64,000 bases of DNA from an uncultured Rikenellaceae bacterium (lineage in GTDB: Bacteria > Bacteroidota > Bacteroidia > Bacteroidales > VadinHA17), in contig CAZXFB010000020.1 of assembly GCA_964639725.1 (NCBI GenBank), positions 2,384 through 66,383 of the forward strand. The letters run 5' to 3'. How positions within the stretch are numbered: the first letter of the stretch is position 1; every line of letters starts with the position of its first letter. This document shows positions 6,651-31,433 of this stretch, one piece after another. A program made the position numbers and the translations under genes. The notes below the pieces were generated by a model. The model was not told the DNA's origin and searched no databases. It saw only the letters and a program-made list of their open reading frames with translations.

Positions 6651-6671
6651 AATTTCATATACTACTCATTA

Positions 6672-8468
6672 TTAAATGATTAATGAGCTTGTCTTATCCT
6701 GTAACCATTCCTGTTCCTCAGACGTAAGATAAGGACTCAGTTTTTCGTAAACTTCGGCATGATATGAATTAAGCCAGTCAGTTTCACGTTTCCCCAGTAA
6801 GGATTTTTCAATCAAAGTTTTATCGATATAACATAAGGAAACTGTGTCGAATTTATAGAATTTCCCGAATTCAGTCTCTTCATCTTCATAACATATAAGC
6901 AGGTTTTCGATCCTGATTCCATACTTTCCTTCAAAATAAATGCCAGGTTCATCAGATATAAGCATTCCTGTTTCAATAATTGTCTTCAAGTCCTTACCAG
7001 ATGAAGGGCTTATATTTTGAGGGCCTTCATGAACATTTAGGCAGAATCCCACCCCATGCCCTGTGCCATGACCATAATTAAGTCCATTATCCCATAATGC
7101 TTTCCGGGCAATCATATCCAACTGGTATCCCTTTGTCCCGGCCGGGAATTTGGCCATTGCAAGATTAATAGTTCCCTTAAGTACCAGTGTGAAATTCCTT
7201 TTTTGTTCAGAGGATGGTTTCCCTAAAACAATTGTCCTGGTAATATCTGTTGTTCCATCAAGATAGTGGCCACCGGAATCAATTAGAAGTATCCCGTCGG
7301 ATCCGATTAATGAATCGGTTTCAGGTGTGGCAGAATAATGCGGCAGTGCCCCATGTTCATTATATGCAACAATAACTGAAAAAGCAGGACAGAGATAATT
7401 TTCCTGTTCTGATCTAAACTGCCTGAGCTTTTCTGCCAGGGAAAGTTCTGATATAGAAACTGATCCATGGTTATTTTCAAACCAGTAAAAAAACTTTGTC
7501 AAAGCCACACCATCCTTTATCATTACCCGTCCAATGTTTTCTATCTCAACTTTGTTCTTAACAGCTTTCATCCGGGTTGGTATACTTATATCTTCTTTAA
7601 TTGTCATCCCCGCAGGGATTGAATTATATAATGCCGCGGAGGTCGTTTCCGGAGTAATCAGGATTGTTGCCCTATGAGACAATGTTGACAACATTCCGGC
7701 TGTTTCTTCATAAGGGAGAAGAATAATAGAAAGCTTATCAAATTCAGTGGCAAGTTTCAATGGGATTTTTTCTTCCTCAGCAAACAAAAGAATCTGTGCT
7801 TCATCAATTATGGCGAACGATGTCAATAAAGGGCTGTATTTAAAATCATTGCCACGGATATTAAGAAGCCACATAATATCATCAACCGAGGTAAGAAGGT
7901 GATAATCCACACCTAGCCGACTCATCTCTGCACGGACTTCACTTATTTTGGCACTTCTATCTTTTCCACAAAAAACTTCAGGATGATCAAAGGCCGGAGA
8001 ACCTGAAATTGGAGGACGCTCCCTCCATAATTCAGAAATAAGATCACATTCAACGTCAATACAGATATTCTTTACTTCTGCCTGTGCCTTAAGATTCCTT
8101 AATTCCCCTATCGATATAGTTCGACCGTCAAGTGCAATTCTTTTTCCGGTGCTGACGTTATAAGTCAGCCATTCAATATAGCCATTCCTCTCAGGAGCGC
8201 CGTTTTTCATAAGAGTAAATACAGAACCAGTGAGTTGATTTTCAGCCTGGACAAAATAACGTGAGTCGGTCCAGAGACCAGCAAATGATTCTGTAATAAC
8301 CACAGTAGCAGCAGATCCGGCAAACCCTGTTAACCAATCAATTATACGCCAATGATCTGTTACGTTAAATCCTAGATGCGGATCCGTGGAAGGTATAATA
8401 TAGGCATCAATGTTATTTTTTCTCATTGAAACCCTCAGAAGGGAGACTCGTTCAGAGTAAGGATTCAT
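6672..8468 (-). CDS. pepP: Xaa-Pro aminopeptidase (M24B, creatinase-like N-domain)
   Basis: HGTGHGVGFCLNVHEGP and SDEPGIYFEGKYGIRIEN are M24 metal-ligand motifs. The start is taken at the internal Met MNPYSE (8468) rather than the ORF-track 8507. Confidence 0.85.
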   Translation of the reverse strand: MNPYSERVSLLRVSMRKNNIDAYIIPSTDPHLGFNVTDHWRIIDWLTGFAGSAATVVITESFAGLWTDSRYFVQAENQLTGSVFTLMKNGAPERNGYIEWLTYNVSTGKRIALDGRTISIGELRNLKAQAEVKNICIDVECDLISELWRERPPISGSPAFDHPEVFCGKDRSAKISEVRAEMSRLGVDYHLLTSVDDIMWLLNIRGNDFKYSPLLTSFAIIDEAQILLFAEEEKIPLKLATEFDKLSIILLPYEETAGMLSTLSHRATILITPETTSAALYNSIPAGMTIKEDISIPTRMKAVKNKVEIENIGRVMIKDGVALTKFFYWFENNHGSVSISELSLAEKLRQFRSEQENYLCPAFSVIVAYNEHGALPHYSATPETDSLIGSDGILLIDSGGHYLDGTTDITRTIVLGKPSSEQKRNFTLVLKGTINLAMAKFPAGTKGYQLDMIARKALWDNGLNYGHGTGHGVGFCLNVHEGPQNISPSSGKDLKTIIETGMLISDEPGIYFEGKYGIRIENLLICYEDEETEFGKFYKFDTVSLCYIDKTLIEKSLLGKRETDWLNSYHAEVYEKLSPYLTSEEQEWLQDKTSSLII

Positions 8469-16506: not shown

Positions 16507-16932
16507 ATGCAATTAAAGCATAAAATAGCGGGTGGCGATTTCGCAAATGCAGGTAATGTGGCTAGTTCGGTGAAAAAAATTCTTCGTCAGCTGAATATTG
16601 ACCATACTATTTCAAAACGAATTGTCATAGCACTTTATGAGGGGGAAGTGAATGTTGTTGCTCATGCATATTCCGGTAATGTAGATATAGATATTGATGA
16701 AGATAAAATAAAAATTACAATCACTGATAAGGGTCCCGGAATATCTGATATAAACAAAGCAATGGAGGAAGGTTTTTCAACAGCATCTCCACAGGTAAGA
16801 GAAATGGGATTTGGAGCCGGAATGGGGTTATCGAATATGAAAAAAAACAGTGATCAGATGAAGCTATCCAGTGAATCAGGGAAAGGTACTGTCGTAGAAA
16901 TACTCACTTATCTTAAACCACATGCAAACTGA
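16507..16932 (+). CDS. RsbW/SpoIIAB-like Ser/Thr kinase (stand-alone HATPase_c)
   Basis: N-box EVNVVAHAY, G1 DKGPGI, G2 GFGAGMGLSNM. It has no HisKA/DHp domain. Confidence 0.65.
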   Translation: MQLKHKIAGGDFANAGNVASSVKKILRQLNIDHTISKRIVIALYEGEVNVVAHAYSGNVDIDIDEDKIKITITDKGPGISDINKAMEEGFSTASPQVREMGFGAGMGLSNMKKNSDQMKLSSESGKGTVVEILTYLKPHAN

Positions 16933-18310
16933 TAATCAAAACAGGGATTTTCATCATGCATTAACAGTTCACGATGAGTTGTGTACCGGATGTACCCATT
17001 GTATGAGTGTCTGTCCAACAAAAGCCATAAGGATCAGGGAAGGAAAAGCCAGGATTATTGCCAACCGATGTGTCGACTGCGGCGAATGTTATAAAGCTTG
17101 TCCTGTTTCTGCTATCGGAGTTGAACAGGATGACCTTGAGATGATTTTTAATTTTCCGGTAAGAGTAATTCTGATTCCAAGTATTTTAATTGGTCAGTTC
17201 CCTGCAAAAATAACTGCCTCCAGCATATATAAAGCTCTTAAAGAAATTGGATTTACACACGTCTATCAGGTTGAGAATACTGTTGATATGGTATTGGATG
17301 CTTACAGGCAATGTGGGAAGGATCAGAAAATACGCCCCCTTATTTCTTCGTTCTGTCCTGCAATTGTTCGTCTTATTCAGGTCAGATACCCCTCTCTTGT
17401 CGGCAACATAATGAGAGTAAATCCTCCGATTGATATGTCGGCACTTTATTATAAGGAAAAACTCAAAGCATCCGGATTTCCGCAAGGTGATATCGGATTA
17501 TTCTATGCAACACCATGTGCCGCAAAAATTGCAGCGATAAAAAGTCCTGTTGGCGAAACAGAATCAGTTGTTACTGGAGTAATTAATATGAATTTTCTTT
17601 ATAACAGAATTCAAAAATACTTACAGAGAAAATATATAGAAATAGATGAGCCTCACACTGACAACCTTTTAAGTTCAAGAGGTATATTATGGAGCCTGAC
17701 AGGAGGGGAAGTTATCCATTCAAAAGAGAGAGCCCTTGCAATAGATGGAATCAGAAATGTTACTGAAATTCTTGAAAGCATTGAAAATGAAAAACTTCAT
17801 GGAATAGACTTTCTTGAGCTAAGAGCCTGCGATGAGAGTTGCGCGGGTGGCATTCTTATCTCAGCGAACAGATTTCTGACAGTTGAGAGATTAAAAAATC
17901 TTGCATCTGAGTATGAAGCCAGGGAGAATTATCAAAACTTTAAAATGACTGAAGGCTTTATTAATATCAAGGAACATAGTTTTCTGGGAAACATAGGGCC
18001 TCGCCCTATTGAAAAACTTGATGAAGATATCTCCATTGCCCTGAGAAAGATGGAAAGAAAACGCAGAATGATGTGCTTTCTACCAGGTTTCGATTGTGGC
18101 GGCTGTGGGGCACCTGATTGCCAGACCCTCTCAGAAGATATTGTTCAGGGCAATGCACAGATCTCGCATTGTGTCTTTATTCAGCAGCAGATGATAAAAC
18201 AAAACCTTTTAGATCATGAGCATGCTTTTCGAATAACCGAAAATATCTGGGGACATGAAAGACTTGAAAAAAACTGTAATAAAATTGGAGCAGAAGATGA
18301 AAATAGCTGA
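16922..18310 (+). CDS. [FeFe]-hydrogenase-like putative sensory protein (2x[4Fe-4S] + H-domain paralog + C-terminal FeS domain)
   Basis: CTGCTHCMSVCP and CVDCGECYKACP. The H-cluster motif equivalents are SSFCPAIV, ATPCAAKIAA and ELRACDESCAGG. The C-terminal CFLPGFDCGGCGAPDC is an RnfB-type FeS motif. Confidence 0.75.
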   Translation: MQTDNQNRDFHHALTVHDELCTGCTHCMSVCPTKAIRIREGKARIIANRCVDCGECYKACPVSAIGVEQDDLEMIFNFPVRVILIPSILIGQFPAKITASSIYKALKEIGFTHVYQVENTVDMVLDAYRQCGKDQKIRPLISSFCPAIVRLIQVRYPSLVGNIMRVNPPIDMSALYYKEKLKASGFPQGDIGLFYATPCAAKIAAIKSPVGETESVVTGVINMNFLYNRIQKYLQRKYIEIDEPHTDNLLSSRGILWSLTGGEVIHSKERALAIDGIRNVTEILESIENEKLHGIDFLELRACDESCAGGILISANRFLTVERLKNLASEYEARENYQNFKMTEGFINIKEHSFLGNIGPRPIEKLDEDISIALRKMERKRRMMCFLPGFDCGGCGAPDCQTLSEDIVQGNAQISHCVFIQQQMIKQNLLDHEHAFRITENIWGHERLEKNCNKIGAEDENS

Positions 18311-18635
18311 TTTGGTTTCAACTCTGAACCTGAAAATCATATCAGGACAGGAAGGAATAAATAACGAAATAAAAGGAGGTTATGTATCAGATCTGCTGAG
18401 TGATGTAATAGGTTCGGCAAGTGAAGGAATGGTGTGGATAACACTTCAGACTCACCAGAATATCGTGGCAGTTGCTTCACTTAAAGATCTGGCAGGAATA
18501 ATTCTTGTCAAGGGGTTACACCCTGATACAGATACAATAAATAAAAGTAATTTTGAAAACATCCCTGTATTATCAACAGATTCTGATACTTTCACTATTA
18601 CGGGTCGTTTATTTGAATTATTAAGAAAGGAATGA
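18297..18635 (+). CDS. Small DRTGG-like domain protein, copy 2
   Basis: The start is taken at MKIADL (18297), overlapping the upstream stop by 14 nt. VSDLLSDVI, WITLQ and the FTITGRLFELL pattern parallel copy 1. Confidence 0.5.
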   Translation: MKIADLVSTLNLKIISGQEGINNEIKGGYVSDLLSDVIGSASEGMVWITLQTHQNIVAVASLKDLAGIILVKGLHPDTDTINKSNFENIPVLSTDSDTFTITGRLFELLRKE

Positions 18636-19369
18636 ATACTTACCGGGCTGACCTGCATATACATACGTTACTATCCCCATGCGGCGACCTTGATATGAGC
18701 CCGGTAAATATTATTTCTGAAGCTGTCCTGAAAAAGCTTGATATAATCGGGATTACCGATCATAATACGACCAGGCATTGCAAAATCATCAGCAAACTAG
18801 CTGAAGCGAAAGGAATATTTGTAATGCAGGGTGCTGAAGTTACAACAAAAGAAGAGGTACATTGCCTTGTGTTCTTTGAAAATACTGATACACTTGACCT
18901 GTTTCAGATATTTCTTGATATAAATCTTCCTGATATAAAGAATTATCCTTCAATATTTGGAGACCAGATACAGGTTGACGAAGATGAAAATATCATTTAT
19001 ACCGAAGAGAAACTTCTTTTAAATGCCATAAATGTTTCATTTAAGGAACTGGAATCTTATGTGCATAAAAATAATGGCCTCATTATTCCGGCCCATGTCG
19101 ACAGGATGAAAAACAGCATTTATAGTCAATTAGGATTTCTTCCGCCGGATATAAAAGCCGACGCACTGGAGATTTCAAGACGCAGTACACCTGAAATATT
19201 TTCAGCATTGCATCAGGAGATCGATTCATTTCCTCTGGTAACAAATTCCGATTCCCATCTTCTTGCTCAGATAGGGTCAGCATTTACAAGTTTTTATCTT
19301 GATCATCCCTCTTGGTCAGAGATCAGGATGGCACTTAAGAATGAAAATAAAAGAATGATAATCAGATGA
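18632..19369 (+). CDS. PHP-domain phosphoesterase
   Basis: DLHIHTLLSPCGD, ITDHNT and PAHVDR are His/Asp metal-ligand motifs of the PHP superfamily. A 4-nt ATGA overlap joins it to the upstream gene. Confidence 0.75.
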   Translation: MNTYRADLHIHTLLSPCGDLDMSPVNIISEAVLKKLDIIGITDHNTTRHCKIISKLAEAKGIFVMQGAEVTTKEEVHCLVFFENTDTLDLFQIFLDINLPDIKNYPSIFGDQIQVDEDENIIYTEEKLLLNAINVSFKELESYVHKNNGLIIPAHVDRMKNSIYSQLGFLPPDIKADALEISRRSTPEIFSALHQEIDSFPLVTNSDSHLLAQIGSAFTSFYLDHPSWSEIRMALKNENKRMIIR

Positions 19370-19920
19370 AAACACTCGCTCTAAATATTCTTGATATTGC
19401 TCAGAATTCTATCAGGGCAAAGGCAACTCAAATAGTGATAAATATCTCAGAATCAAAAAAGGGGGATAATATGGAGATTAGCATAAATGACAATGGAATC
19501 GGAATAAATAAAAATATGATTAACAAGGTAACCGATCCGTTTATAACCAGCAGAAAAACCCGAAGAATCGGGATGGGACTCCCTCTTCTTAAATATCACG
19601 CAAAAATTGCAGGCGGGGATATGATAATCAAATCTCAGGAAAATAATGGGACCAGTGTTAATGCTACTTTCTCGCTCTCTCATTTTGACAGACAGCCTTT
19701 GGGTGATATAGCCGGAGTAATGACAATACTAATTGCTGCTAATCCAGATATATGCTTCCTATACTCCCATACAACAGATTTGGGAGAATACCGGTTCTCA
19801 TCCACAGAGACTAAAGAATTTCTTGAAGTCAATACATTGAATGATTATATCTTGCTCGATATGATAAAAAGTATGATAAATGAAAACCTCAGGGGAATTA
19901 GTGTATCAGATATGAATTAG
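19366..19920 (+). CDS. Stand-alone histidine-kinase-like ATPase (HATPase_c) protein
   Basis: N-box LDIAQNS, G1 NDNGIGI, G2 RIGMGLPLL. It has no DHp or receiver domain. A 4-nt overlap joins it to the PHP gene. Confidence 0.65.
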   Translation: MKTLALNILDIAQNSIRAKATQIVINISESKKGDNMEISINDNGIGINKNMINKVTDPFITSRKTRRIGMGLPLLKYHAKIAGGDMIIKSQENNGTSVNATFSLSHFDRQPLGDIAGVMTILIAANPDICFLYSHTTDLGEYRFSSTETKEFLEVNTLNDYILLDMIKSMINENLRGISVSDMN

Positions 19921-20016
19921 TAAAATAATTGCTAATTAACAGGATATTATAAATATTTTGAATAATTTTAAAGAATTGATAATGAGATTAATTGAATTAA
20001 TTTAATAATAGAGTGT

Positions 20017-20418
20017 ATGTCAAAAATTATGTCTCTGGCGGATCTTAAAAAGAAACGCGAAGAATTAAAGGGCGGTCTGGACATCCGTATCAAGGCTATT
20101 GATCCTGAGAACCACGTACAAGTCAAGGTTGCTATGGCAACCTGTGGTATTGCTTCCGGGGCAAAAGCTGTAATGGAGTTCTTTCTTGAACAACTTCAGC
20201 GCAGAAATATTGAAGCTGTAGTTACCCAGACCGGGTGTATGGGATACTGTTATGCGGAACCTACTATTGAAGTAAAACTTCCGGGCCAGGATCCCGTAGT
20301 ATTTGGTTTTGTGGATCTAAAAAGGGCCGACCAGGTCATTGAAAAGTACATTAAGACGGGTGAACTGATTGATGGTATCATCCCGGTGAATTATGAAACT
20401 ATTGACTTAAACGAATAA
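20017..20418 (+). CDS. Thioredoxin-like [2Fe-2S] ferredoxin (HndB-like accessory hydrogenase subunit)
   Basis: MATCGIASGA ... TGCMGYCYAEP is a thioredoxin-like ferredoxin Cys pattern. The gene lies immediately upstream of the NuoF-like subunit. Confidence 0.7.
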   Translation: MSKIMSLADLKKKREELKGGLDIRIKAIDPENHVQVKVAMATCGIASGAKAVMEFFLEQLQRRNIEAVVTQTGCMGYCYAEPTIEVKLPGQDPVVFGFVDLKRADQVIEKYIKTGELIDGIIPVNYETIDLNE

Positions 20419-20429
20419 GGAGGATAAAT

Positions 20430-22223
20430 ATGTCAAAATACAGTATGCATCTTCTGGTTTGTGGTGGCACAGGCTGTCACGCTTCTGAAAGTGATGCTAT
20501 TGTCTGCAATTTGAGAGATGAACTGGAAGCAAAAGGCTTGCAGGAGACAGTTCAGGTTATATTGACCGGATGTTTTGGTTTTTGTGAAAAAGGACCAATC
20601 GTCAAAGTAATGCCAGACAATACATTTTATGTTCAGGTAAAACCTGAGGACGCCCAGATAATTGTTGAGGAGCATGTTATAAAGGGAAGAAAAGTCACTA
20701 AACTTTTATATCATGATCCTATTAATAAAAAACCTGTTGAGGATTCCAAACACATGGGATTCTATAAAAAACAGATCAGGATCGCACTAAGAAACTGTGG
20801 TTTCATCAACCCTGAAAATATTGATGAATATATTGCCCGTGATGGATACCAGGCATTGGGTAAAGTTCTTACAGAAATGACGCCCGATGAAGTAATAAGG
20901 GAAATAAAAGAATCGGGACAAAGAGGCCGTGGGGGTGGTGGATTCCCAACAGGTCTTAAATGGGAGATTGCAAGAAGAAACGTTTCGGATGAGAAATATG
21001 TAGTATGTAATGCCGATGAAGGTGATCCCGGCGCATTTATGGACCGCTCGGTCCTTGAGGGCGATCCTCACTCTGTACTTGAAGCTATGGCTATTTGCGG
21101 TTATAGTATCGGTGCCGGTAATGGTCTCATTTACATTCGTGCTGAATACCCGCTTGCCATTGAACGGTTAAAAATAGCCATAAAACAGGCAATGGAAAAT
21201 GGTTTGCTTGGAGATAACATACTTGGAACAGGTTTCAATTTTGATATTACTATCCGATATGGGGCCGGAGCGTTTGTATGCGGAGAGGAGACTGCCCTGA
21301 TACACTCTATGGAAGGTCACAGGGGAGAACCTACGGTTAAACCACCATATCCTGCTGAATCCGGTTATCGAAACAAACCTACAAACGTCAATAATGTTGA
21401 AACATTTGCTTCCATTCCGGCAATAATTCTTAAAGGTGCCAAATGGTACAGCAGTATCGGAACAGCAAAGTCAAAAGGAACAAAAGTTTTTGCCCTTGCA
21501 GGAAAGGTTAATAATGTAGGTCTGATAGAAGTTCCAATGGGAACTACACTTCGGGAAGTTATCTTTGAGATTGGTGGTGGTATTAGACATGGTAAAAAAT
21601 TCAAAGGGGTGCAAACTGGTGGCCCGTCAGGCGGTTGTATGACAGAAAAACATCTTGACACTCCGATTGATTTCGATAATCTTATTGCAGCAGGTTCAAT
21701 GATGGGTTCAGGTGCAATGATAGTTCTGGATGAAGATGACTGTATGGTTTCAATGGCGAAATATTTTCTTGAGTTTACTGTTGAAGAATCATGTGGTAAA
21801 TGTGCCCCTTGCCGAATTGGAAATAAACGTCTACATGAACTACTTGGCCATATATGTGACGGAAAAGGTACTCTTGAGGATCTTGACAGGCTGAAGAACA
21901 TGAGTCTTGTTATAAAAGATACAGCTCTTTGCGGATTGGGACAGACATCCCCTAACCCGGTTCTCTCAATGATGGAAAACTTCAGGGAGGAATACGTAAC
22001 CCATGTAACTGCCAAAAAGTGTCCGGCTGGTCAATGCCGGAGCCTTATGGAATATGTTATTAATCCCGAGAATTGCGTTGGGTGTACCGCCTGCGCAAGA
22101 GTATGCCCTGTTAATGCTATATCAGGGGAAAGAAAAGAGGTGCATCTTATTAATCCAGCAATTTGCATTAAATGCGGTGCATGTATGGAGAAATGTAAGT
22201 TTGATGCAATTTTTATCAGATAA
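20430..22223 (+). CDS. hydB: [FeFe]-hydrogenase NuoF-like flavoprotein subunit (HydB/HndC)
   Basis: The N-terminal [2Fe-2S] domain is LVCGGTGCHA..GCFGFCEKGP. GRGGGGFPTGLKW is the FMN site. CGKCAPCR is the N3-type cluster. C-terminal CVGCTACARVCP and CIKCGACMEKC motifs follow. Confidence 0.9.
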   Translation: MSKYSMHLLVCGGTGCHASESDAIVCNLRDELEAKGLQETVQVILTGCFGFCEKGPIVKVMPDNTFYVQVKPEDAQIIVEEHVIKGRKVTKLLYHDPINKKPVEDSKHMGFYKKQIRIALRNCGFINPENIDEYIARDGYQALGKVLTEMTPDEVIREIKESGQRGRGGGGFPTGLKWEIARRNVSDEKYVVCNADEGDPGAFMDRSVLEGDPHSVLEAMAICGYSIGAGNGLIYIRAEYPLAIERLKIAIKQAMENGLLGDNILGTGFNFDITIRYGAGAFVCGEETALIHSMEGHRGEPTVKPPYPAESGYRNKPTNVNNVETFASIPAIILKGAKWYSSIGTAKSKGTKVFALAGKVNNVGLIEVPMGTTLREVIFEIGGGIRHGKKFKGVQTGGPSGGCMTEKHLDTPIDFDNLIAAGSMMGSGAMIVLDEDDCMVSMAKYFLEFTVEESCGKCAPCRIGNKRLHELLGHICDGKGTLEDLDRLKNMSLVIKDTALCGLGQTSPNPVLSMMENFREEYVTHVTAKKCPAGQCRSLMEYVINPENCVGCTACARVCPVNAISGERKEVHLINPAICIKCGACMEKCKFDAIFIR

Positions 22224-22234
22224 TAAGAAAAGTA

Positions 22235-24013
22235 ATGGAGAATATAAAGCTTACTATAGATAATAAGGAGATTGAAGTACCAAAGGGTACAACAATATAT
22301 AAAGCAGCAAAAGAACTGGGTATTGATATCCCGACACTATGTTATATGCATTTGCACGACCTTAACATAGAAAATAAGCCTGCAGGATGCAGGATTTGTG
22401 TTGCTGAAGTTGATGGTCGTCGTAACCTCGCTCCCACCTGTTCAACAAATTGCGAACAGGGAATGGTCGTAAAAACTCACACACCCAGAGTATTAAATGC
22501 CCGACGTACTGTAATGGAGTTTATACTTTCAGACCATCCCAAAGATTGTCTTGTGTGCTCTAAATCAGGAAATTGCGACCTTCAAAACATGGCTCATCGG
22601 CTTGGGATCAGAGAGATACCTGGAGCAGAATTTGCTGCAGTCTCAACTTACCGGAAAGATACATCTCCCTCAATTATCAGGGATCTGGATAAATGTATCA
22701 TGTGCCGCAGATGTGAGACAATGTGTAATGACGTTCAGACTGTAGGTGCCCTGTCAGCCATAAACCGTGGTTTTATGGCAACAGTTGCTCCTGCATTCGA
22801 ACAAAATCTCGAACATTCCACCTGTACATATTGTGGACAATGTGTTGCTGTATGTCCAACAGGCGCATTAACTGAGGTCAATCATGTGCCAAATGTTCTC
22901 AGAGCTCTTGTTGATCCGACCAAAACAGTTGTTGTGCAGACAGCTCCTGCAGTTCGTGTTGCGCTGGGAGAAGAGTTCGGACTTGAACCGGGAACAATTG
23001 TGACTGGAAAAATGGTAGCTGCTTTGCGGGCTCTTGGTTTTGATTATGTATTTGATACGGATTTTGCTGCTGACCTGACAATTATGGAAGAAGGGACAGA
23101 GTTACTCGGAAGGTTGAAACGTCATCTTGACGGAGATAAAACAGCCAGGATTCCGATATTGACATCATGTTGTCCCGGCTGGGTAAACTTTTTTGAGGAG
23201 TATTTTCCCGATCTCAAGGACGTACCATCAACTTCAAAATCGCCTCAGCAAATGTTCGGTGCTATAGCAAAAACATATTTTGCGGATAAGATTGGTATAA
23301 ACCGTAAAGATATGGTCGTTGTTTCCATAATGCCATGCCTTGCCAAAAAATATGAGTGCCAGAGAGAGGAATTTTCTGTTGATAATAATCCTGATGTTGA
23401 TTTTTCAATTTCAACCAGGGAATTAGCTTCATTTATCAAGCAGGCGAATATTGATATTAAAAACCTGCATGATGAGGAGTTTGACTCCCCGCTTGGTGAA
23501 TCGACCGGTGCCGGAGTTATTTTTGGCGCAACCGGCGGAGTAATTGAAGCTGCATCCCGTACTGCTTATGAGCTATTCACAGGAAAAAAACTTGAGAGGT
23601 TGGACTTCACGGAACTAAGGGGTATGGAAGGTGTACGTGAAGCTACAATTGACTTTAATGGCACACCTGTCAGGATTGGAATAGCACATGGCCTTGGTAA
23701 CGCAAGAAAGCTTCTTAATGATGTAAGATCAGGACAATCATTATTTCATGCAATTGAAGTTATGGCATGCCCCGGAGGTTGTATCGGAGGTGGTGGACAA
23801 CCACTGCATCATGGTGACTCGGGGATAATAAAGTCAAGAGCTGCAGCAATTTATGCTGAAGACAGAAAGAAACCCCTGAGGAAATCTCATGAAAATCCTT
23901 TCATAATTAAACTGTATGAGGAGTTCCTGGGAGAACCTAATAGCGAGAAAGCTCATCATTTGCTTCATACGAAGTATTTTGACAAAAAGAAAAAGATCAT
24001 AATTAAACAATAG
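22235..24013 (+). CDS. hydA: [FeFe]-hydrogenase catalytic subunit (HydA/HndD)
   Basis: All three H-cluster motifs are present: TSCCPGW, MPCLAKKYE and EVMACPGGCIGGGGQP. There is an N-terminal [2Fe-2S], a His-ligated cluster (HPKDCLVCSKSGNC) and 2x[4Fe-4S]. Confidence 0.92.
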   Translation: MENIKLTIDNKEIEVPKGTTIYKAAKELGIDIPTLCYMHLHDLNIENKPAGCRICVAEVDGRRNLAPTCSTNCEQGMVVKTHTPRVLNARRTVMEFILSDHPKDCLVCSKSGNCDLQNMAHRLGIREIPGAEFAAVSTYRKDTSPSIIRDLDKCIMCRRCETMCNDVQTVGALSAINRGFMATVAPAFEQNLEHSTCTYCGQCVAVCPTGALTEVNHVPNVLRALVDPTKTVVVQTAPAVRVALGEEFGLEPGTIVTGKMVAALRALGFDYVFDTDFAADLTIMEEGTELLGRLKRHLDGDKTARIPILTSCCPGWVNFFEEYFPDLKDVPSTSKSPQQMFGAIAKTYFADKIGINRKDMVVVSIMPCLAKKYECQREEFSVDNNPDVDFSISTRELASFIKQANIDIKNLHDEEFDSPLGESTGAGVIFGATGGVIEAASRTAYELFTGKKLERLDFTELRGMEGVREATIDFNGTPVRIGIAHGLGNARKLLNDVRSGQSLFHAIEVMACPGGCIGGGGQPLHHGDSGIIKSRAAAIYAEDRKKPLRKSHENPFIIKLYEEFLGEPNSEKAHHLLHTKYFDKKKKIIIKQ

Positions 24014-24049
24014 AGTTATACCGTTAAGTCAAAAATAAAATTCAAGGTT

Positions 24050-24532
24050 ATGTCAAGTATAAAAATTGAATTAAGGAACGAGGATGTAGATTTTATAAAA
24101 AAAGTATGTTCCTCATTTAATAATGATCCTCAGGAACTTATTAATGTCCTGCACAGTTGTCAGGAACATTTTGGTTATCTGCCTGCCGAAGTACAGGAAG
24201 TTGTGTCTGATCAGCTAACCTTACCGGTTGCAAAAATCTATGGAGTAGTGACATTCTACTCATTCTTCTCCATGACGCCAAAGGGAAAACATCCTATAAG
24301 CATATGTATGGGAACAGCCTGTTATGTAAGGGGTGGTGAGAAAGTTCTGGATGAATTTAAAAAGGAACTTGGTATACAGGTAGGTCAGGTCACAAAAGAT
24401 AATAAATTTTCACTTTCAAGCCTTCGTTGTGTTGGTGCATGTGGATTAGCGCCGGTTGTTCTTGTAGGTGACAAAACCTACGGGAGAGTAGCTCCGGACG
24501 ATGTGAAAAATATATTAAAAGAATACGAATAA
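24050..24532 (+). CDS. hydC: [FeFe]-hydrogenase NuoE-like [2Fe-2S] subunit (HydC/HndA)
   Basis: CMGTACYVRG and CVGACGLAPV form the NuoE-type Cys pattern. Size is 160 aa. Confidence 0.85.
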   Translation: MSSIKIELRNEDVDFIKKVCSSFNNDPQELINVLHSCQEHFGYLPAEVQEVVSDQLTLPVAKIYGVVTFYSFFSMTPKGKHPISICMGTACYVRGGEKVLDEFKKELGIQVGQVTKDNKFSLSSLRCVGACGLAPVVLVGDKTYGRVAPDDVKNILKEYE

Positions 24533-24563
24533 AAAGTTTCTAATTGGTTTCTGGGTTTTATAA

Positions 24564-24598
24564 GACCGGGGCTATGGTTTGTCCCGGTTTTATTTTTC
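24564..24598 (+). terminator. Rho-independent terminator between the convergent hydrogenase and cytochrome operons
   Basis: ACCGGG (24565-24570) pairs with CCCGGT (24583-24588) and is followed by TTTTATTTTT. Confidence 0.6.
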
Positions 24599-24627: not shown

Positions 24628-26247
24628 TCAAAACCTCTTTCGTACCTGCAGATACAACCTGTTATATTTGTCCCTTTCCTCAAATGTTCCCTCATAACTA
24701 ACTGATAATGATAAGTTTTTTACGGGTTGCCATGATAAACTCACCTCCCCTACATCCTGATGTATATCGAGAATGTTTTCAGGAAGAGTGTAATCAACAT
24801 AACGATAACCAATACCTGTTTGAACCTTACTTCTGAAAAAATCTCGGGAAAAGTTTAAACTGAATATCTTTCCGTTAATATAACCCGACAATAAGTATGT
24901 CGCAGAAATGGTTGAAGAGATGTTTAATGCCGGAATCTGGTTGTAAGTAAGATAACCATTGATATTTTCAGAACGATGAGGGTCCGATTTCAGAAAGCGA
25001 TAACCAGTCTGCAAACCAAACATTATATCCCTGGTAATCCGATAGTTGACCTGAACCCGAAAACCCTGTCTCAATTCATTTTCCAGAATGCGGTCAACGA
25101 ATGTCTTGTATGTCTCATAATATATAATATTTTTCCTCGCGTCATAAGACCCGTAAAGAGTAAGTTTCTTTCCTGGTTTATAACTCAGAGATAAGTAAAG
25201 ACCTGTCAGGTTCAGAGTATTCTGAGCCTTACTTGTTAATGAATCTCCTTTAAGCTGATAAAGATCTGCTTCTAAAGTGGTGAAAAAGGAAAGGTTATTA
25301 ATTAATGAATTTGAATGTTGAAAATAAATGAATCGACGGTCGGTTTTTGAATTATTGGTTTGCTGAATTAGAGCCAGCGAACTCTCGCTATAGCTGTTCT
25401 GTGTTTTAGTATTATAGGCAACATAGGTACCATATTGAAGCAGCCTAATATTAAAGCTATAATTCAAGTAATCAGGCCTTGTACCAATAAATGCACCCAT
25501 GGAAAACCTGTTTAAGGATTTCTCAAATTGCAAACCGTCAATTGCTCCGACACTTGATATTCTCGGGTTTATCTTTCGTCCCAGACTGATCTGAGTAGTT
25601 TTATTAAGGTCATACTTTACGGCCAGGCTAAAAATCTTGAGAGCATTAAAAACGTTGTTTTTTACCTCTTCCCATTCACCTGCCTTGTGCCTGAACGATA
25701 AATAGCTCTCAAGGGAGAGCTTTGAATTAGCGATATTCCGGGCATCTAATGAAAATGTATAGCGAAACCTCTGTGATTTACTTGTATTTGTACCTGAATT
25801 ATCGGAATAGGAATTCACTGAAACTGTTCCCCTGATTTTTTGTTTTAAGCCATCAGCGTGTGTGGGCATATTGGTTGAATCAATAGAGGCAGCAGGTATC
25901 TTTTCAACCTTCGCTATACTTTCGATAATCTCATTATCAGATTTCCTATCAGTGACTTTCACTCTTGCGATAATAAGATCAGCAACTAAAAAACTTTTCA
26001 TGGATAGAGGTGAGCAGACACACGAAGATGAGGATAAATTCTTTACCATAAGTGCAGGTAAAAAGTTACCATCTGACTGTGTAAAAAGTGTATCCCCTGG
26101 TGATATTCCTTTTGTAGATTTAAATTTAACATAAATATTCTGGGAACTGACAAATGATACTTGTCCGGACAAACTTTCCAATAATGTCTGACCAGGCAAT
26201 TCAACACATGAAATATATAGCAGAAATATCAGAATGGTTTTTCTCAT
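24628..26247 (-). CDS. Putative outer-membrane beta-barrel protein (last gene of the cytochrome operon)
   Basis: Signal peptide MRKTILIFLLYIS... Long stretches have alternating hydrophobic/polar residues rich in Y, S, N and G. The C-terminal residue is Phe (..YLQVRKRF). The family was not recognised. Confidence 0.55.
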   Translation of the reverse strand: MRKTILIFLLYISCVELPGQTLLESLSGQVSFVSSQNIYVKFKSTKGISPGDTLFTQSDGNFLPALMVKNLSSSSCVCSPLSMKSFLVADLIIARVKVTDRKSDNEIIESIAKVEKIPAASIDSTNMPTHADGLKQKIRGTVSVNSYSDNSGTNTSKSQRFRYTFSLDARNIANSKLSLESYLSFRHKAGEWEEVKNNVFNALKIFSLAVKYDLNKTTQISLGRKINPRISSVGAIDGLQFEKSLNRFSMGAFIGTRPDYLNYSFNIRLLQYGTYVAYNTKTQNSYSESSLALIQQTNNSKTDRRFIYFQHSNSLINNLSFFTTLEADLYQLKGDSLTSKAQNTLNLTGLYLSLSYKPGKKLTLYGSYDARKNIIYYETYKTFVDRILENELRQGFRVQVNYRITRDIMFGLQTGYRFLKSDPHRSENINGYLTYNQIPALNISSTISATYLLSGYINGKIFSLNFSRDFFRSKVQTGIGYRYVDYTLPENILDIHQDVGEVSLSWQPVKNLSLSVSYEGTFEERDKYNRLYLQVRKRF

Positions 26248-26256
26248 AAAATAAAT

Positions 26257-27498
26257 TTAGTCTGCATTTCCTTTAGGATGGCATCTGAAACAGGAGGCAC
26301 TGTCATATGAATAACCTGATTGACCCCGGTGTTCCTTATCCATATCCGTTTTATTGTGTTCGTGACAGCTTATACAGGTAAATTGTGAATAATTTGACGC
26401 ATTGGAATGACAGTCAGTACATGAATTCCATTCTCCCCTATGTTTCCCTGAATAGATCGGGAAAGATCTGCTATCATGTTGTGCATAAGATGCCGGTTTC
26501 CATTCAGGATTTGTAGTATGGCACTCTGTACAGGTAACAGAAAAACTCAATGTCTGGTGTTTCGGATTAATGGAATTATTATAATCATCCTTATGGCAGC
26601 TGAAGCAATCGGTTGGAGTAGATGCATAGTTGCCACCAATATGACAATCGATACATGCCGGAGTGGAATGACCAAGTGTAAGAGGAAAACGGCTGTGATC
26701 AAAACTTGCGGGTTTCCAACCAGGTGCAAGGGTATGGCAGTTTCCGCATGTAACAGGAAAATTGGAGGCAGTATGGTTTGGATTAATAGTTGCAAGGTAA
26801 TCCTTCTGATGGCATGAATTACATTCAGGCTGAGCGTCAGAATAGCGACCAGTTGTATGACAGTCAGTACATTTTACTGTTGAATGCCCTTGTAACAGGG
26901 CGAAGAAATTGTGATTAAAACCTGCCCCAGACCACTGAAATGAGTTTACTGGGTGACAGGTTGAACAATTTTCTGAAAATCCAGCATCAATATGTTTCGG
27001 ATTTGTAGTAGCCATAAAATCCTGACGGTGGCAATCGATACAGTTTGTACCGGTAACATCAAACCGGACAAGGTTCTCCGACTTGTGACATAAATAGCAA
27101 TCTGCAGATTTGTGAGCTCCTAAAAGAGGAAACCGGCTTGTCTGGTGAATTCCACTGATATTATTTACCAGCCATGAGTCGGGCGTATGACAACGTGAAC
27201 AATCTGAACCAACTGTAGACTGATGCACATCATTATGACATTGATAACATTCAGTATGTGCTTCTGAAAAAACAAGCGAAGGATGACAAAGTTTGCAGGT
27301 AACCTCATTATGTTGTCCAACCAGGGGAAACTTACTCTTTTTGTGATCAAAAGAGTAAATCTCTTTATCAACCTGCCATCCTTTAGAGCTGTGGCAGGAG
27401 CTGCAACTTTCCTTTAAAGAAGTACCGTGAGGCGATTTGGTCTTCTGGTTTGAAAAAAAGAGTATTGCAAATAAGATCAAAAGTGACAGGATTCGCAT
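26257..27498 (-). CDS. Multiheme c-type cytochrome, 16 CxxCH motifs
   Basis: Signal peptide, then 16 CxxCH motifs counted in 413 aa. Modules of the form F-D/N-H..F.L.G.H....CxxCH repeat. Confidence 0.9.
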   Translation of the reverse strand: MRILSLLILFAILFFSNQKTKSPHGTSLKESCSSCHSSKGWQVDKEIYSFDHKKSKFPLVGQHNEVTCKLCHPSLVFSEAHTECYQCHNDVHQSTVGSDCSRCHTPDSWLVNNISGIHQTSRFPLLGAHKSADCYLCHKSENLVRFDVTGTNCIDCHRQDFMATTNPKHIDAGFSENCSTCHPVNSFQWSGAGFNHNFFALLQGHSTVKCTDCHTTGRYSDAQPECNSCHQKDYLATINPNHTASNFPVTCGNCHTLAPGWKPASFDHSRFPLTLGHSTPACIDCHIGGNYASTPTDCFSCHKDDYNNSINPKHQTLSFSVTCTECHTTNPEWKPASYAQHDSRSFPIYSGKHRGEWNSCTDCHSNASNYSQFTCISCHEHNKTDMDKEHRGQSGYSYDSASCFRCHPKGNAD

Positions 27499-29075
27499 TT
27501 GAATTCTTTTAGTTTATAAATAACGTAGGTTTTTGATCCTTCTTGTTGTGTCCTGTGACATTTTTTGCATTCAACATTAATATGTTTTCCATCAAGCTTA
27601 AAAGAAGTATTATTATGATCGAATTTTGACAATTCCCAGTTTTCTGTAGTATGACATTCATTGCAATCAGTCATACCGTTTCTTTCAAATTGCCTGAAAT
27701 GGTTATCGGAATGGCATGAAGAACAATTTTTTGATAATCCTTCAAATTTTTGCCTGACAAAACCGTCGGAATCCTTTTTAAAGTGACAAGTACGGCATTT
27801 TTGACCTGTATGGGCTCCACTCAAAACAAACTCAGTTTTCGAATGATCAAAGATCACCTCCTCCCAGCGGGTTTCTGAATGACATGTTATGCAACTTCCA
27901 GCAGGATAATATCTGGCCGGAATTATATTTTGATGAATATCAGCATGGCAATCTTTACAATTAATGCCAATTTCCCTGAAACTCCACTTTTCCTGCTTCT
28001 TATGACACTCATAACAAGGTATAGCCCTGTGTGCTGCCTGCAACGGGAAACGACTCAAATTATGCTTTTCTACAGTAAACAAGAATTGAGCAAAACCTTT
28101 TACAGTATGACATTCTGAGCAATCCGGAGTAATATTGTTTTTTGAAAACTGATTGTTGTGGTAATCGGCATGACAATCAGTACACCTATCATGTTTTAAA
28201 GGATCTGTAAACTTTGTCTTATGACACGATCTGCAATTAACAATCAGGTGTTTCTCTTCGAGTTTGAAATCAGTTTTATTATGATCAAAATTTCTGATCC
28301 CGCTCACTATCTGGAAAGATTCTTCACTATGACACTGTCGACAATTCTGTCCGAATTTATTCAAATGCGGATCCTTATGGCAACTGGTGCAATTAATATA
28401 TTGAATGCCACGGAAGTGCTGAAACTTTTTTCCTTCTATCATTTCAACCTTATGGCATTTATTACAATCAACTTTTTTATGTTTGCCTGCAAGTTGAAAT
28501 CTTGCAGTATTATGATTAAAATTTGAAGCTGGTGTAAAGGATTCCGGGTTATGACAATTCAGACAGGAAGAAGAGAGTGTCCTGAGGTGATAATCAGCAT
28601 GACAGGTTAAACATTCTGGTTTTAAACCGAGATATGTGTTCTTTCTGTTAATAAATATCTGATCCGTAAAATTTTTTGCGTTATGACATTCATTACATTC
28701 CTGTTTGATATGAGGTGCGAATAATGAGAATCCGGTAAGGTTATGGTTAAAATTTTTAAGATCAAGACGTATCAGTTGAAAATTTTTGCCATTATGTTCG
28801 CTGTGACAGACAGAACATTGTTTCCCCTTTACTTCAACTGAGGAGTGATATCCCTTCTGAAGGTTAATCCTGGTCTCTATTTCCGTATGACAAATCAGAC
28901 ATTTATCATTTGAAACCTTGTTACCCAGGAGGTGACATTGTGTACAATTTGAAATTCCTTCCAAGTGAGAATGGGCATTAGACAAAACACCTGGTGAGAT
29001 CTGAGCCGATACTTTTAATAATGACAATAAGAAAATAAGAATGACCCCAGCTTTCTTTCCTGCTTTATCCTGCAT
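27477..29075 (-). CDS. Multiheme c-type cytochrome, 20 CxxCH motifs (tandem c7-like triheme modules)
   Basis: Signal peptide ..LLKVSAQ, then 20 CxxCH motifs counted in 532 aa. There are five complete repeats of about 75 aa with three hemes each. Confidence 0.9.
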   Translation of the reverse strand: MQDKAGKKAGVILIFLLSLLKVSAQISPGVLSNAHSHLEGISNCTQCHLLGNKVSNDKCLICHTEIETRINLQKGYHSSVEVKGKQCSVCHSEHNGKNFQLIRLDLKNFNHNLTGFSLFAPHIKQECNECHNAKNFTDQIFINRKNTYLGLKPECLTCHADYHLRTLSSSCLNCHNPESFTPASNFNHNTARFQLAGKHKKVDCNKCHKVEMIEGKKFQHFRGIQYINCTSCHKDPHLNKFGQNCRQCHSEESFQIVSGIRNFDHNKTDFKLEEKHLIVNCRSCHKTKFTDPLKHDRCTDCHADYHNNQFSKNNITPDCSECHTVKGFAQFLFTVEKHNLSRFPLQAAHRAIPCYECHKKQEKWSFREIGINCKDCHADIHQNIIPARYYPAGSCITCHSETRWEEVIFDHSKTEFVLSGAHTGQKCRTCHFKKDSDGFVRQKFEGLSKNCSSCHSDNHFRQFERNGMTDCNECHTTENWELSKFDHNNTSFKLDGKHINVECKKCHRTQQEGSKTYVIYKLKEFKCESCHF

Positions 29076-29100: not shown

Positions 29101-30432
29101 CTAATGTTTCATAACTATTTCACCAAACTTTTTTGTAATCTTAATTCCTGCTTTTTCAAGGAACTGGATTGGCAACTCTCCTCCGGCAAAAATAAAGACC
29201 ATATCATTTGGTAATTCAATATTCTCACCATTCTCATTGATTGAAAGAGTAATAGTTGTATCTCCAATAGAAATAAGGTTTGTCTTTAATCTGACATCAA
29301 GCCTACTTTCCGTAACGGCTTTATTCAGGGAAATTGTGTTAAGTGGCTTGATTCGGTTAAAAACCTCATTCCTGTAGGAAAGGATAACATGATTATTATC
29401 TGCAAGAAGCAAAGCTGATTCGACAGCTGAGTCACCTCCACCAACAACTATGATATGTTTACCTGTAATATCTTCGGGTTCCAGCAGCCTGTAAGCTACT
29501 TTCTCCTTATCTTCTCCAGGGATATTCAATTTACGAGGTGTACCTCTTCTGCCAATGGCCATTAAAATTCTTGCGGCAGTAAATTGATCGCCATTTAGTG
29601 TAGTTACCTTCAGAATCGAATTATCAGAAACAATAGATTCTACTTTAGAGTTTTCACTAATATTGATACTGTTTTTCGAGAGTACAGTTTGCCATAATTC
29701 AAGCAATTCGGATTTACTGGTTTCAAAGAGCTTTATTTTCCCAAACAGCGGCAGATCCATTGGAGAAGTCATTATGATTTTCTTCCTGGGAAAAGTAAAA
29801 ACTGTCCCACCCAGAGTATCCTGTTCCAGTACTAAAAATCTCAATCCAAATTTTTTTGCTGCCAGGCATCCGGAAATTCCCGCAGGTCCAGCACCAATGA
29901 TAATAAGATCGTAATCAGCCTTATGATCTTTATTAAATGACTTAATAATATTTTCCACTGCCTGACGACCCTGCTCAACAGCATTTTTGATAAGGCCCAT
30001 ACCTCCTAATTCACCGGCAATAAATATTCCCGGAACATTTGACTCGAAATTAGCGCTTACATGAGGAAGTTCAACTCCCCGGAACTCTGTACCTATCCTT
30101 AGACTTATAGCTTCAGTCGGGCAAGCATGAAAGCAGGCACCATGTCCGATGCACCGTGAAGCATTTATAATAGTAGCTTTACCGTTACGTATTCCCAGAA
30201 TATCATGTTCAGGGCAAGCTGAAATACACGCACCGGTCTGAATACACCTGTTTACATCTACAACCGGGTGCAGTGAGATAGGTTCATGAAGTCCCTCATC
30301 CTTAGCTTTCCTAATCTTTTCTTCGACAACTTTTGATTCTCTGCTTTTCTTTCGCAGGTAAATAGCTACAACTATAACACATAGTAATATTGTCACAGAA
30401 TAAATCAGGATATTTTCTAATAGCAGTTCCAT
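29101..30432 (-). CDS. Membrane-anchored FeS-ferredoxin-domain / FAD-NAD(P) pyridine-nucleotide-disulfide-type oxidoreductase
   Basis: N-terminal TM followed by RKKSRESK. Ferredoxin-like CIQTGACISACP and CIGHGACFHACP. FAD motif DLIIIGAGPAG. NAD(P) motif IIVVGGGDSAVE. Confidence 0.75.
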   Translation of the reverse strand: MELLLENILIYSVTILLCVIVVAIYLRKKSRESKVVEEKIRKAKDEGLHEPISLHPVVDVNRCIQTGACISACPEHDILGIRNGKATIINASRCIGHGACFHACPTEAISLRIGTEFRGVELPHVSANFESNVPGIFIAGELGGMGLIKNAVEQGRQAVENIIKSFNKDHKADYDLIIIGAGPAGISGCLAAKKFGLRFLVLEQDTLGGTVFTFPRKKIIMTSPMDLPLFGKIKLFETSKSELLELWQTVLSKNSINISENSKVESIVSDNSILKVTTLNGDQFTAARILMAIGRRGTPRKLNIPGEDKEKVAYRLLEPEDITGKHIIVVGGGDSAVESALLLADNNHVILSYRNEVFNRIKPLNTISLNKAVTESRLDVRLKTNLISIGDTTITLSINENGENIELPNDMVFIFAGGELPIQFLEKAGIKITKKFGEIVMKH

Positions 30433-30434: not shown

Positions 30435-31304
30435 TTAAAAAATCCAGCGGTAACCGAAAAGAATTGTAACACCGACATGAATCACCATAATTATCAACAT
30501 CACAAGAGCAAAGGGCAGATGGGCAACATGCCAGTATTTAAATAAATTCTGCATAGAATCCAGTCTTTCAATTCTGCGGTTTAATAATATATCTTCTTTT
30601 ACCAGGTTAAGTATTTTTTTATAATCTGAACCGGATAATTTATTTTTTTTTAGAACACTTTTAACTAACCTGATAGATCTTTGGTCATCCAGATGCTTTT
30701 CTATATATCGGAGTATCGGATTCTTCCTGTATAATACAACCTTCTTTTTTATAGAATCAAGCAAAATATTGTAACTCTCCTCATTAAGATTGTATGTATT
30801 TCTAACTATTACGGCAATATCACTTTTCATTCCCTTCACTTCATTTAAACTTAGTTCTCTTCCTTCTATTGATCGAGGTATCTGAATATAAATGAAGCGT
30901 CCAATAATTCCACTCAAAAAAACTGCAACCATACTCCAGAAACTAATAGCAACCAATCCTCCGAATTTATATGAAGTATGAAAAAGAATAAGAATGGGAC
31001 CAAGTGTGCAAAGAAAAATATGAACTTCGAGCCAATGCTTCAGCAACCCTATCCTGGACAAAAAACGGTATCTTTTTCGCGCCATATATGAACCCATCCC
31101 GATGATCATCAAAAAAGACCCAAGTATCCCAATGCCGTGCCCGATAGTCCCACTAGGTTTAAGCAATAAATGATCAGGATGGAAGACCCTTTCTTCAAGC
31201 CCGGATCTGTAATATGACAATCCTCTGTAAAAAAGGAAAATCGCAGTTATAATCACAATTGAAACCAATATGACTAAAAATATTCTGTGAGTAATTCGGG
31301 ACAT
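30435..31304 (-). CDS. Integral membrane protein, candidate di-heme b-type cytochrome (unknown family)
   Basis: About 5 TM helices. H95-x13-H109 and H262-x13-H276 lie inside predicted helices. A long K/R-rich loop spans roughly residues 145-255. Confidence 0.5.
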   Translation of the reverse strand: MSRITHRIFLVILVSIVIITAIFLFYRGLSYYRSGLEERVFHPDHLLLKPSGTIGHGIGILGSFLMIIGMGSYMARKRYRFLSRIGLLKHWLEVHIFLCTLGPILILFHTSYKFGGLVAISFWSMVAVFLSGIIGRFIYIQIPRSIEGRELSLNEVKGMKSDIAVIVRNTYNLNEESYNILLDSIKKKVVLYRKNPILRYIEKHLDDQRSIRLVKSVLKKNKLSGSDYKKILNLVKEDILLNRRIERLDSMQNLFKYWHVAHLPFALVMLIIMVIHVGVTILFGYRWIF

Positions 31305-31391
31305 TAAATAAAGATATTTCTTTTCAAAATCTATTGTAACAATTTATGAACATTAGTAAAAATAGTGTTTTTTACCTTTTGTGAAACTGCC

Positions 31392-31415
31392 ACGATAATA
31401 AAACAAAATTATCGT
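31392..31415. promoter_or_regulatory. Perfect 8-bp inverted repeat between ygiQ and the cytochrome operon (terminator or operator)
   Basis: ACGATAAT (31392-31399) and ATTATCGT (31408-31415) flank an 8-nt spacer. On the minus strand the spacer region reads TAATTTTG, a TAnnTTTG-like box. Confidence 0.3.
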
Positions 31416-31433
31416 CGCCTCTAAAACTTTTAG

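Follow-up and report, generated by a model that had tools for sequence, protein, structure and literature searches.

How might electrons cross the inner membrane between a membrane-tethered flavoprotein and a pair of very haem-rich cytochromes c encoded beside it? The question is raised by a five-gene, minus-strand operon in a stretch of 64,000 nucleotides, hereafter the window, from an uncultured Rikenellaceae bacterium (GenBank assembly GCA_964639725.1, contig CAZXFB010000020.1, positions 2,384 to 66,383 of the forward strand). The operon is headed by the gene for an inner-membrane protein of a conserved kind (IMP, the name used in He et al. 2017), in which a preliminary description, made from the DNA letters, had noticed two intramembrane pairs of histidines with the spacing of di-haem b proteins. 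Our best reading, to which we assign a probability of roughly 0.55, is that IMP would be a di-haem transmembrane relay in a five-gene, trans-envelope electron conduit fed by reduced nicotinamide adenine dinucleotide (phosphate), NAD(P)H. The IMP gene and the parts of its product that matter here are as follows.

Positions 30435..31304, minus strand: IMP gene of the type found in PCC3 porin-cytochrome c clusters, encoding a predicted di-haem b subunit of 289 amino acids with five helices (open reading frame and translation).
Positions 30975..31043, minus strand: transmembrane helix 3, residues 88-110, with W91-x3-H95-x13-H109 (conservation, and model helix 88-109).
Positions 30882..30959, minus strand: transmembrane helix 4, residues 116-141, with S131-G132-x-x-G135 and the invariant-like residues M125, R136 and Y139 (conservation).
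Positions 30534..30881, minus strand: cytoplasmic helical insert, residues 142-257, rich in lysine and arginine (charge count and model helices).
Positions 30459..30533, minus strand: transmembrane helix 5, residues 258-282, with W258-x3-H262-x13-H276 and H259 (conservation).

The histidine pairs are exactly where they had been placed. The peptides read H95-IFLCTLGPILILF-H109 and H262-LPFALVMLIIMVI-H276 (codons at 31020-31022, 30978-30980, 30519-30521 and 30477-30479, in that order), both within hydrophobic segments, and Kyte-Doolittle hydropathy assigns five transmembrane segments to the protein, at approximately residues 8-26, 56-74, 93-110, 117-140 and 259-282. An AlphaFold2 model built from an alignment of 106 diverse relatives (predicted local distance difference test, pLDDT, 92.9; predicted template-modelling score 0.83) has long helices at residues 3-33, 53-78, 88-109, 116-141 and 225-282, the last of which spans 58 residues and has the fifth transmembrane helix as its final third, with three shorter helices (153-170, 175-185 and 196-220) in the preceding loop. 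That loop, which joins helices 4 and 5 (residues 141-258), is helical and contains 25 lysines and arginines against 15 acidic residues, while the N-terminus has a charge of +2, and the loop at residues 74-92 combines six basic residues with no acidic ones. By the positive-inside rule, a cytoplasmic position is supported for both the N-terminus and the long loop, in agreement with the earlier proposal of a basic cytoplasmic loop of about 110 residues. Helices 3 and 5 run parallel, because the N-terminus and the long loop are both cytoplasmic, and by the same topological logic H95 and H262 should both sit slightly inside the membrane, a few residues from its cytoplasmic face, with H109 and H276 near the periplasmic face, the histidines to be paired thus being at matching depths. 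This favours the bis-haem geometry originally suspected, as one histidine of each pair at each face, on two parallel helices, is the predicted arrangement needed for two stacked bis-histidine haems.

Among 107 full-length relatives, sharing 28-59% identity with IMP, H95 is kept in 106, H109 in all 107, H262 in 99 and H276 in 100, such that the four histidines are among the best conserved positions of the protein; the preliminary description had proposed this check, and the lack of conservation that it named as refuting is not what is seen. The exceptions at H262 and H276 fall in the region that has to be aligned across the variable loop. The surrounding motifs are retained to a similar degree: W91 in 92% of the relatives and W258 in 96%, and the SGXXG motif of helix 4 (S131-G132-I-I-G135 in IMP) at 98% for S131, 99% for G132 and 100% for G135, with H109 and G135 being the sole invariant columns. 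H259, also on helix 5, is kept in 93 of the 107. A third H-x13-H pair, H42/H56, which extends over the first periplasmic loop into the beginning of helix 2, is only partially conserved. In 200,000 shuffles of the IMP sequence, two or more H-x13-H pairs arose in 4.6% and three or more in 0.36%, whereas two W-x3-H-x13-H motifs, as found in IMP, arose in 0.001%.

The preliminary description had not recognised the family to which this protein belongs, and here it can be amended. He, Barco, Emerson and Roden (2017, Front Microbiol 8:1584; PMC5566968) described the IMPs of PCC3 and PCC4 porin-cytochrome c clusters as proteins of approximately 300 amino acids, with five transmembrane helices, an SGXXG motif on the fourth and WX3HX13H on both the third and fifth, and read them as redox proteins carrying two b haems, 'possibly a quinone-active cytb'. 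The window protein has the same signature, with 289 amino acids, five transmembrane helices, both W-x3-H-x13-H motifs and SGXXG on helix 4, and its cluster contains the corresponding gene set, namely two multihaem cytochromes and a 539-residue presumed barrel. Hence IMP is a member of the PCC3/PCC4-type class by signature, the type IMPs of Sideroxydans and Leptothrix having been compared by description only, and its two-b-haem reading is largely anticipated by that work. The PCC3 and PCC4 IMPs were stated not to be detectably homologous even to each other, and Supplementary Table 6 of the same paper lists 'MHC + IMP + redox protein' clusters, in some of which the redox protein has 412-425 amino acids (PMC5566968). 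Later papers on Gallionellaceae and Sideroxydans still describe the function of PCC3 as unverified.

The family is large. At least 6798 homologues were found in a search of 5.8 billion proteins, the closest named one being from a Bacteroidales metagenome-assembled genome, and an exhaustive search of 50%-identity representatives returned 2564 clusters at E≤0.001. Full-length IMP was present in approximately 30 genomes (about 10%) in a sample of 301 from the phylum Bacteroidota. A search of NCBIfam with IMP gave zero matches. Many orthologues (P0026, P0056, P0059 and others) carry the Joint Genome Institute name 'sulfur relay (sulfurtransferase) DsrC/TusE family protein', which is backed by neither domain content nor gene context and looks like a propagated mis-annotation, and other members are still labelled 'hypothetical protein'. 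One relative (P0174, 513 amino acids) has a DUF6572-like N-terminal extension of 236 amino acids ahead of a complete IMP.

The genes downstream of IMP encode its candidate partners.

Positions 29101..30432, minus strand: flavoprotein of 443 amino acids, with a transmembrane anchor, a ferredoxin-like domain and a body binding flavin adenine dinucleotide (FAD) and NAD(P) (Pfam Pyr_redox_3, 2e-40, and Fer4 families).
Positions 27477..29075, minus strand: cytochrome c of 532 amino acids, with 20 CxxCH motifs and a signal peptide (motif count; Pfam Cytochrome_C7, c3 and MtrC-like).
Positions 26257..27498, minus strand: cytochrome c of 413 amino acids, with 16 CxxCH motifs and a signal peptide, overlapping the preceding gene by 22 nucleotides (motif count and Pfam).
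Positions 24628..26247, minus strand: signal-peptide protein of 539 amino acids with a C-terminal phenylalanine, a presumed outer-membrane barrel or porin (inferred; no Pfam match).

The five genes are separated by 2, 25, -22 and 9 nucleotides, and the two cytochromes together provide 36 CxxCH motifs downstream of IMP. The flavoprotein, which starts 2 nucleotides past the IMP stop codon, begins with a transmembrane helix, after which come basic residues. For its body, of thioredoxin-reductase/YpdA type, the closest relatives in the PDB are YpdA/Bdr, thioredoxin reductase (TrxR) and the TrxR-type ferredoxin-NADP reductases. No CxxC redox disulfide was found in its sequence, and it is therefore not a disulfide reductase. 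Between anchor and body stand two iron-sulphur (Fe-S) motifs, C-x2-T/S-x2-C-x3-C-P and C-x2-H-x2-C-x3-C-P (residues 63-74 and 94-105), and the absence of the second cysteine from both of these ferredoxin-type motifs suggests [3Fe-4S] or histidine-ligated [4Fe-4S] clusters; the residues found in its place, T/S66 and H97, do not vary among 75 orthologues.

The association of these genes was followed in 80 loci from named genomes, found with a narrower alignment as the broader one was too diverse. All are Bacteroidota-type metagenome-assembled genomes (Bacteroidales, Marinilabiliales, Prolixibacteraceae, Draconibacterium, Saprospiraceae, Lewinellaceae and one 'Chlorobiota'). The flavoprotein adjoins IMP in every one of the 80, the 20-haem cytochrome is present in 77 and the 16-haem cytochrome in 76; the barrel gene was found in 54, many of the others ending at a contig or flank edge. 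Upstream, by contrast, the synteny of a YgiQ radical-SAM gene extends to no more than 3 of the 80 loci. Hence synteny is lost upstream of IMP and kept downstream, which places the start of the operon at IMP, as first described. Relatives with 28-45% identity have the genes in shuffled order: the flavoprotein precedes IMP with a 4-nucleotide overlap in locus L081, follows it in L084 and L086, and comes last in the operon, after the barrel, in L119. That the linkage outlasts such rearrangement is the strongest evidence in this analysis for IMP and the flavoprotein working together; it also supports the early suggestion that the adjacent flavoprotein acts with IMP.

The long insert of IMP does not strictly track the flavoprotein. 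Its sequence is variable and its length is kept, the distance between the two conserved tryptophans being 160-179 residues in 87 of 103 relatives, and rare short-insert variants (P0234 and P0182) retain the flavoprotein or the cytochromes in their operons. A strict rule in which the insert serves as the docking platform for the flavoprotein is ruled out by P0234, from a lineage that takes in Gemmatimonadota, which has a loop of approximately 30 amino acids and still encodes the flavoprotein at the operon end. A seemingly direct link is P0202 (418 residues), in which the first half of an IMP runs into the second half of the flavoprotein; it was rejected as a natural fusion, because it has no ferredoxin domain and each partner is reduced to a half, and is probably a chimera of assembly or gene calling.

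These elements can be assembled into a single path. Electrons would enter at the flavoprotein, tethered to the membrane by its one helix, and pass from NAD(P)H to FAD and then to the two Fe-S clusters. They would next reach a b haem ligated by H95 and H262 near the cytoplasmic face, and from there a second, ligated by H109 and H276 near the periplasmic face, some 21 Å away across 14 residues of helix. The 20-haem cytochrome would receive them in the periplasm and hand them to the 16-haem cytochrome, threaded through or resting on the outer-membrane barrel, from which they would go on to an acceptor outside the cell, for example Fe(III), humics or a partner cell. What is observed are the sequence features and their conservation, the topological argument, the linkage of the genes and the cofactor motifs of the partners; haem binding, carrier order, direction of flow, the NAD(P)H donor and quinone independence are inferred from these. 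The steps of this path do not share the same strength. Haem binding by IMP is very likely; direct electron transfer from flavoprotein to haem is somewhat better than an even prospect. That IMP and the anchored NAD(P)H-FAD-FeS protein constitute a split NOX-like NAD(P)H:multihaem-cytochrome oxidoreductase, bypassing the quinone pool, is a tentative extension that we would hold a little below even odds.

The immediate surroundings are in keeping with such a role. Two putative elements flank the operon.

Positions 31305..31433, minus strand: upstream intergenic region of 129 nucleotides, with a promoter-like site at 31360-31333 (consensus scan, weak alone).
Positions 24560..24593, no strand assigned: GC-rich, terminator-like hairpin separating the last gene of the operon from the convergent hydrogenase genes (sequence).

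A convergent set of [FeFe]-hydrogenase genes, of sensory and electron-bifurcating types, occupies 16922-24532 on the plus strand and ends 95 nucleotides from the conduit operon. As the hydrogenase set and the conduit adjoin across a shared hairpin, two alternative sinks for reducing equivalents would lie side by side, and the conduit may serve as the second sink for fermentative reducing equivalents in this hydrogenase-bearing, anaerobic Bacteroidales host.

Several points weigh against the reading of IMP as a di-haem relay fed by the flavoprotein. Firstly, haem b in the IMP class stands as a genome-based prediction of 2017. Secondly, the profile comparisons that the preliminary description had recommended left homology to the established haem-b families unsupported. 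For the ferric-reductase domain (PF01794) there was no Pfam match, and hhalign against two Bacteroidia proteins with this domain gave a probability of 0.2%; for cytochrome b561/Ni_hydr_CYTB (PF01292) the hhalign probability was 0.8%; and for cytochrome b (PF00033) there was no Pfam match and an hhalign probability of 5.6%, over a region without the histidines. The template profiles of these three families were shallow (2-6 sequences, from related genomes), making this weak negative evidence. Sequence searches of the PDB, with IMP alone or with a 106-sequence profile, returned coiled-coil noise on the insert and nothing else. Thirdly, the fold gave no clearer relationship. Foldseek with the full model produced nothing significant, F-BAR-like long helices dominating the results, and the model of the short-insert relative P0234 (pLDDT 87.5), made such that Foldseek could be run without the insert, was likewise non-significant, its best haem proteins being cytochrome b561 (4o7g/4o6y) at template-modelling scores of 0.36-0.41 (E>1.9) and STEAP2 at 0.34 (E 3.3).

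Fourthly, even the family that comes closest, DUF4405 (PF14358), is reached by one helix. IMP scored 14.5 bits against it (E 0.054, residues 257-279), below the threshold of 26.7 bits, and hhalign with canonical DUF4405 proteins covered 24 columns, corresponding to helix 5, at a probability of 35%. On the favourable side, a homologue 75% identical to IMP passes the DUF4405 threshold, with 29.7 bits; the canonical DUF4405 proteins of related genomes have an invariant W-x3-H-x13-H motif (W53, H57 and H71 in their alignment), which hhalign aligns with W258, H262 and H276 of IMP; and a purified DUF4405 member binds haem b and is proposed to carry electrons across the membrane (Huang et al. 2024, mSystems, PMC11334425). 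When the 106 relatives were compared with Pfam one by one, the weak matches were almost confined to families of two-haem-cytochrome type: DUF4405 in 51 (E<0.1), Ferric_reduct in 22, Ni_hydr_CYTB in 20 and PepSY_TM in 3. Hence IMP resembles proven haem-b families on paper, and membership in any of them is not demonstrable; the haem-ligating helix motif in common with DUF4405 is its only link to them.

The remaining adverse points concern quinones, and bear on the alternative that survives best. This is the published hypothesis for the IMP class (PMC5566968), in which IMP is a quinone-active cytochrome b, working as quinol oxidase or quinone reductase, with its haems as the link from the periplasmic cytochromes to menaquinone, and with the flavoprotein as a parallel or regulatory input rather than an obligatory donor. 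A short IMP homologue of approximately 200 amino acids, with both histidine pairs, occurs in 44 of 44 sampled genomes of one family, the green sulfur bacteria (identified by the FMO protein), where it adjoins a 14-16-haem cytochrome c, and no flavoprotein was found within 5 kb of it in any of the 44. It may be, therefore, that the haem core can work with a different redox partner, for example a quinone. The host of the window has a MqnP-like UbiA prenyltransferase, and MenA was found in 12 of the 28 other genomes carrying IMP, making a quinone pool likely; the host itself probably makes menaquinone. MenA was not found in the host genome, and an argument from an organism lacking menaquinone was dropped because the MqnP-like prenyltransferase is present despite this. 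What the quinone alternative struggles to accommodate is the long form of the protein, in which linkage to the flavoprotein is near-absolute and outlasts gene shuffling, which is hard to square with a dispensable input. Furthermore, a quinone-site motif is neither known nor identified in IMP, and the hhalign comparisons, with their shallow templates, found no similarity to the quinone-reactive cytochrome b families. We consider it unlikely, although it is the most serious of the competing explanations, and regard independence of the conduit from quinones as plausible, short of an even chance.

Some further observations attach to these genomes. The short homologues lie at 4792-5418 (minus strand) of locus L108 and 4907-5512 (plus strand) of L109, and in L108 a gene for a Cyc2-like fused cytochrome-porin (6004-7269) is situated just upstream; Table S6 of He et al. 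(PMC5566968) had such short clusters for Chlorobium ferrooxidans, among others. In the host genome, the MqnP-like prenyltransferase belongs to a set of genes listed at C13:44253-44987, C3:1098-1844, C31:10516-10749, C31:18114-18698 and C2:141797-142000, which also includes a haem o synthase-like gene, a ResB/CcsA-type gene, a Ni_hydr_CYTB-type cytochrome b and one canonical DUF4405. The ResB/CcsA-type gene is a long, fused cytochrome c maturation gene, with the Ni_hydr_CYTB-type cytochrome b approximately 8 kb away, and the presence of this maturation function (ResB) would count in favour of a haem conduit.

The direction of flow could also be reversed, with electrons from an extracellular donor, such as Fe(II), a cathode or a partner cell, passing through the di-haem protein to the flavoprotein and making NAD(P)H. 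The first PCC3 and PCC4 clusters to be found came from Fe(II) oxidisers (PMC5566968), and multihaem wires and TrxR-type ferredoxin-NADP reductases are, as a matter of general knowledge, reversible in principle. Yet inward transfer to a couple at -320 mV would have to overcome the redox gradient as well as the membrane potential, and the operon encodes no coupling device. The host, moreover, looks fermentative and anaerobic, with an electron-bifurcating [FeFe]-hydrogenase next door, pointing to a need for electron disposal, and the PCC3 genes of S. lithotrophicus are reported in the literature to be down-regulated on Fe(II). Reverse flow is therefore improbable. Least probable of all is that IMP contains no haem, its conserved histidines being structural or binding another metal and the protein merely anchoring or scaffolding the flavoprotein and cytochromes: this would account for the absence of a significant sequence or fold match to solved haem proteins and for scores below the curated family thresholds, but not for four intramembrane histidines with the canonical 14-residue spacing, on two parallel helices and with W-x3 before each pair, conserved across thousands of sequences and always beside haem-rich partners, nor for the experimental binding of haem b by a DUF4405 protein with the same helix motif (PMC11334425), and it would leave the cytoplasmic Fe-S flavoprotein and the periplasmic cytochromes electrically unconnected for want of a membrane cofactor.

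If IMP does carry two haems that are reduced by the flavoprotein, it would define a route of electron export fed from the cytoplasm. To our knowledge, every characterised Gram-negative pathway of extracellular electron transfer (CymA, CbcL, ImcH, MtoC) begins at the quinone pool. The split NOX-like arrangement, if correct, would amount to an entry point into extracellular electron transfer that has so far gone unrecognised, common in Bacteroidota and Gemmatimonadota and probably in further groups, through which fermenters could discharge NAD(P)H directly onto minerals, humics and partner cells. The contribution of fermentative Bacteroidota in sediments, digesters and wastewater to iron, humic and interspecies electron cycling would then have to be recounted. 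The IMP-flavoprotein pair is small and should be expressible, which makes an eight-year-old prediction, that of 2017, directly and easily testable.

The proposed conduit can be set beside several known systems, each of which shares a part of it. The Tmc and Hmc complexes of sulfate reducers combine a cytochrome b in the membrane with an Fe-S protein on the cytoplasmic side and a multihaem cytochrome c in the periplasm, and so resemble the window system as a transmembrane path through the same three kinds of carrier; their subunits are unrelated (HdrD-like and NarI-like), and they have neither a flavin/NAD(P)H module nor an outer-membrane part. The NOX and ferric-reductase proteins, and MsrQ-Fre, are alike in concept, with NAD(P)H and flavin on the cytoplasmic side, two bis-histidine haems held by helices 3 and 5, and electrons moving outwards. 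They differ in having six helices, compared to five in IMP, although the histidines are on the third and fifth in both, and in the window the flavin module is a separate, membrane-anchored polypeptide with two Fe-S clusters interposed, with no match in sequence or fold. He et al. also pointed out the likeness to NOX and ferric reductases (PMC5566968). DUF4405 proteins have in common with helix 5 of IMP the W-x3-H-x13-H transmembrane helix, whereas their partners are ApbE flavinylation or ferrosomes, rather than multihaem cytochromes (PMC11334425), IMP falls under the family cut-off, and the canonical DUF4405 gene sits elsewhere in the host genome.

A further comparison is with PtdF, a 'ferric reductase-like' membrane protein of the porin-multihaem operon ptdABCDEFG, which also includes an FAD/NAD(P) oxidoreductase and a 2x[4Fe-4S] protein (Elbon, Stewart and Glass, bioRxiv 10.1101/2023.11.21.568154). 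There, unlike in the window, the haem partners are penta-, tetra- and decahaem proteins, Fe-S and flavin are on separate proteins, one with a cyclic nucleotide monophosphate domain, and the hosts are marine Proteobacteria, Nitrospirales and Planctomycetes, all compared by description only. The closest correspondence is with PCC3 and PCC4 themselves, in which an IMP predicted to be an inner-membrane electron carrier with two b haems stands beside two very haem-rich cytochromes c and a porin. Those of He et al. were mostly from Proteobacteria that oxidise Fe(II), whereas the host here is an anaerobic Bacteroidales bacterium; and they drew IMP as a quinone-reactive cytochrome b, with no flavoprotein donor discussed, whereas in the window operon the flavoprotein gene stands directly behind that of IMP.

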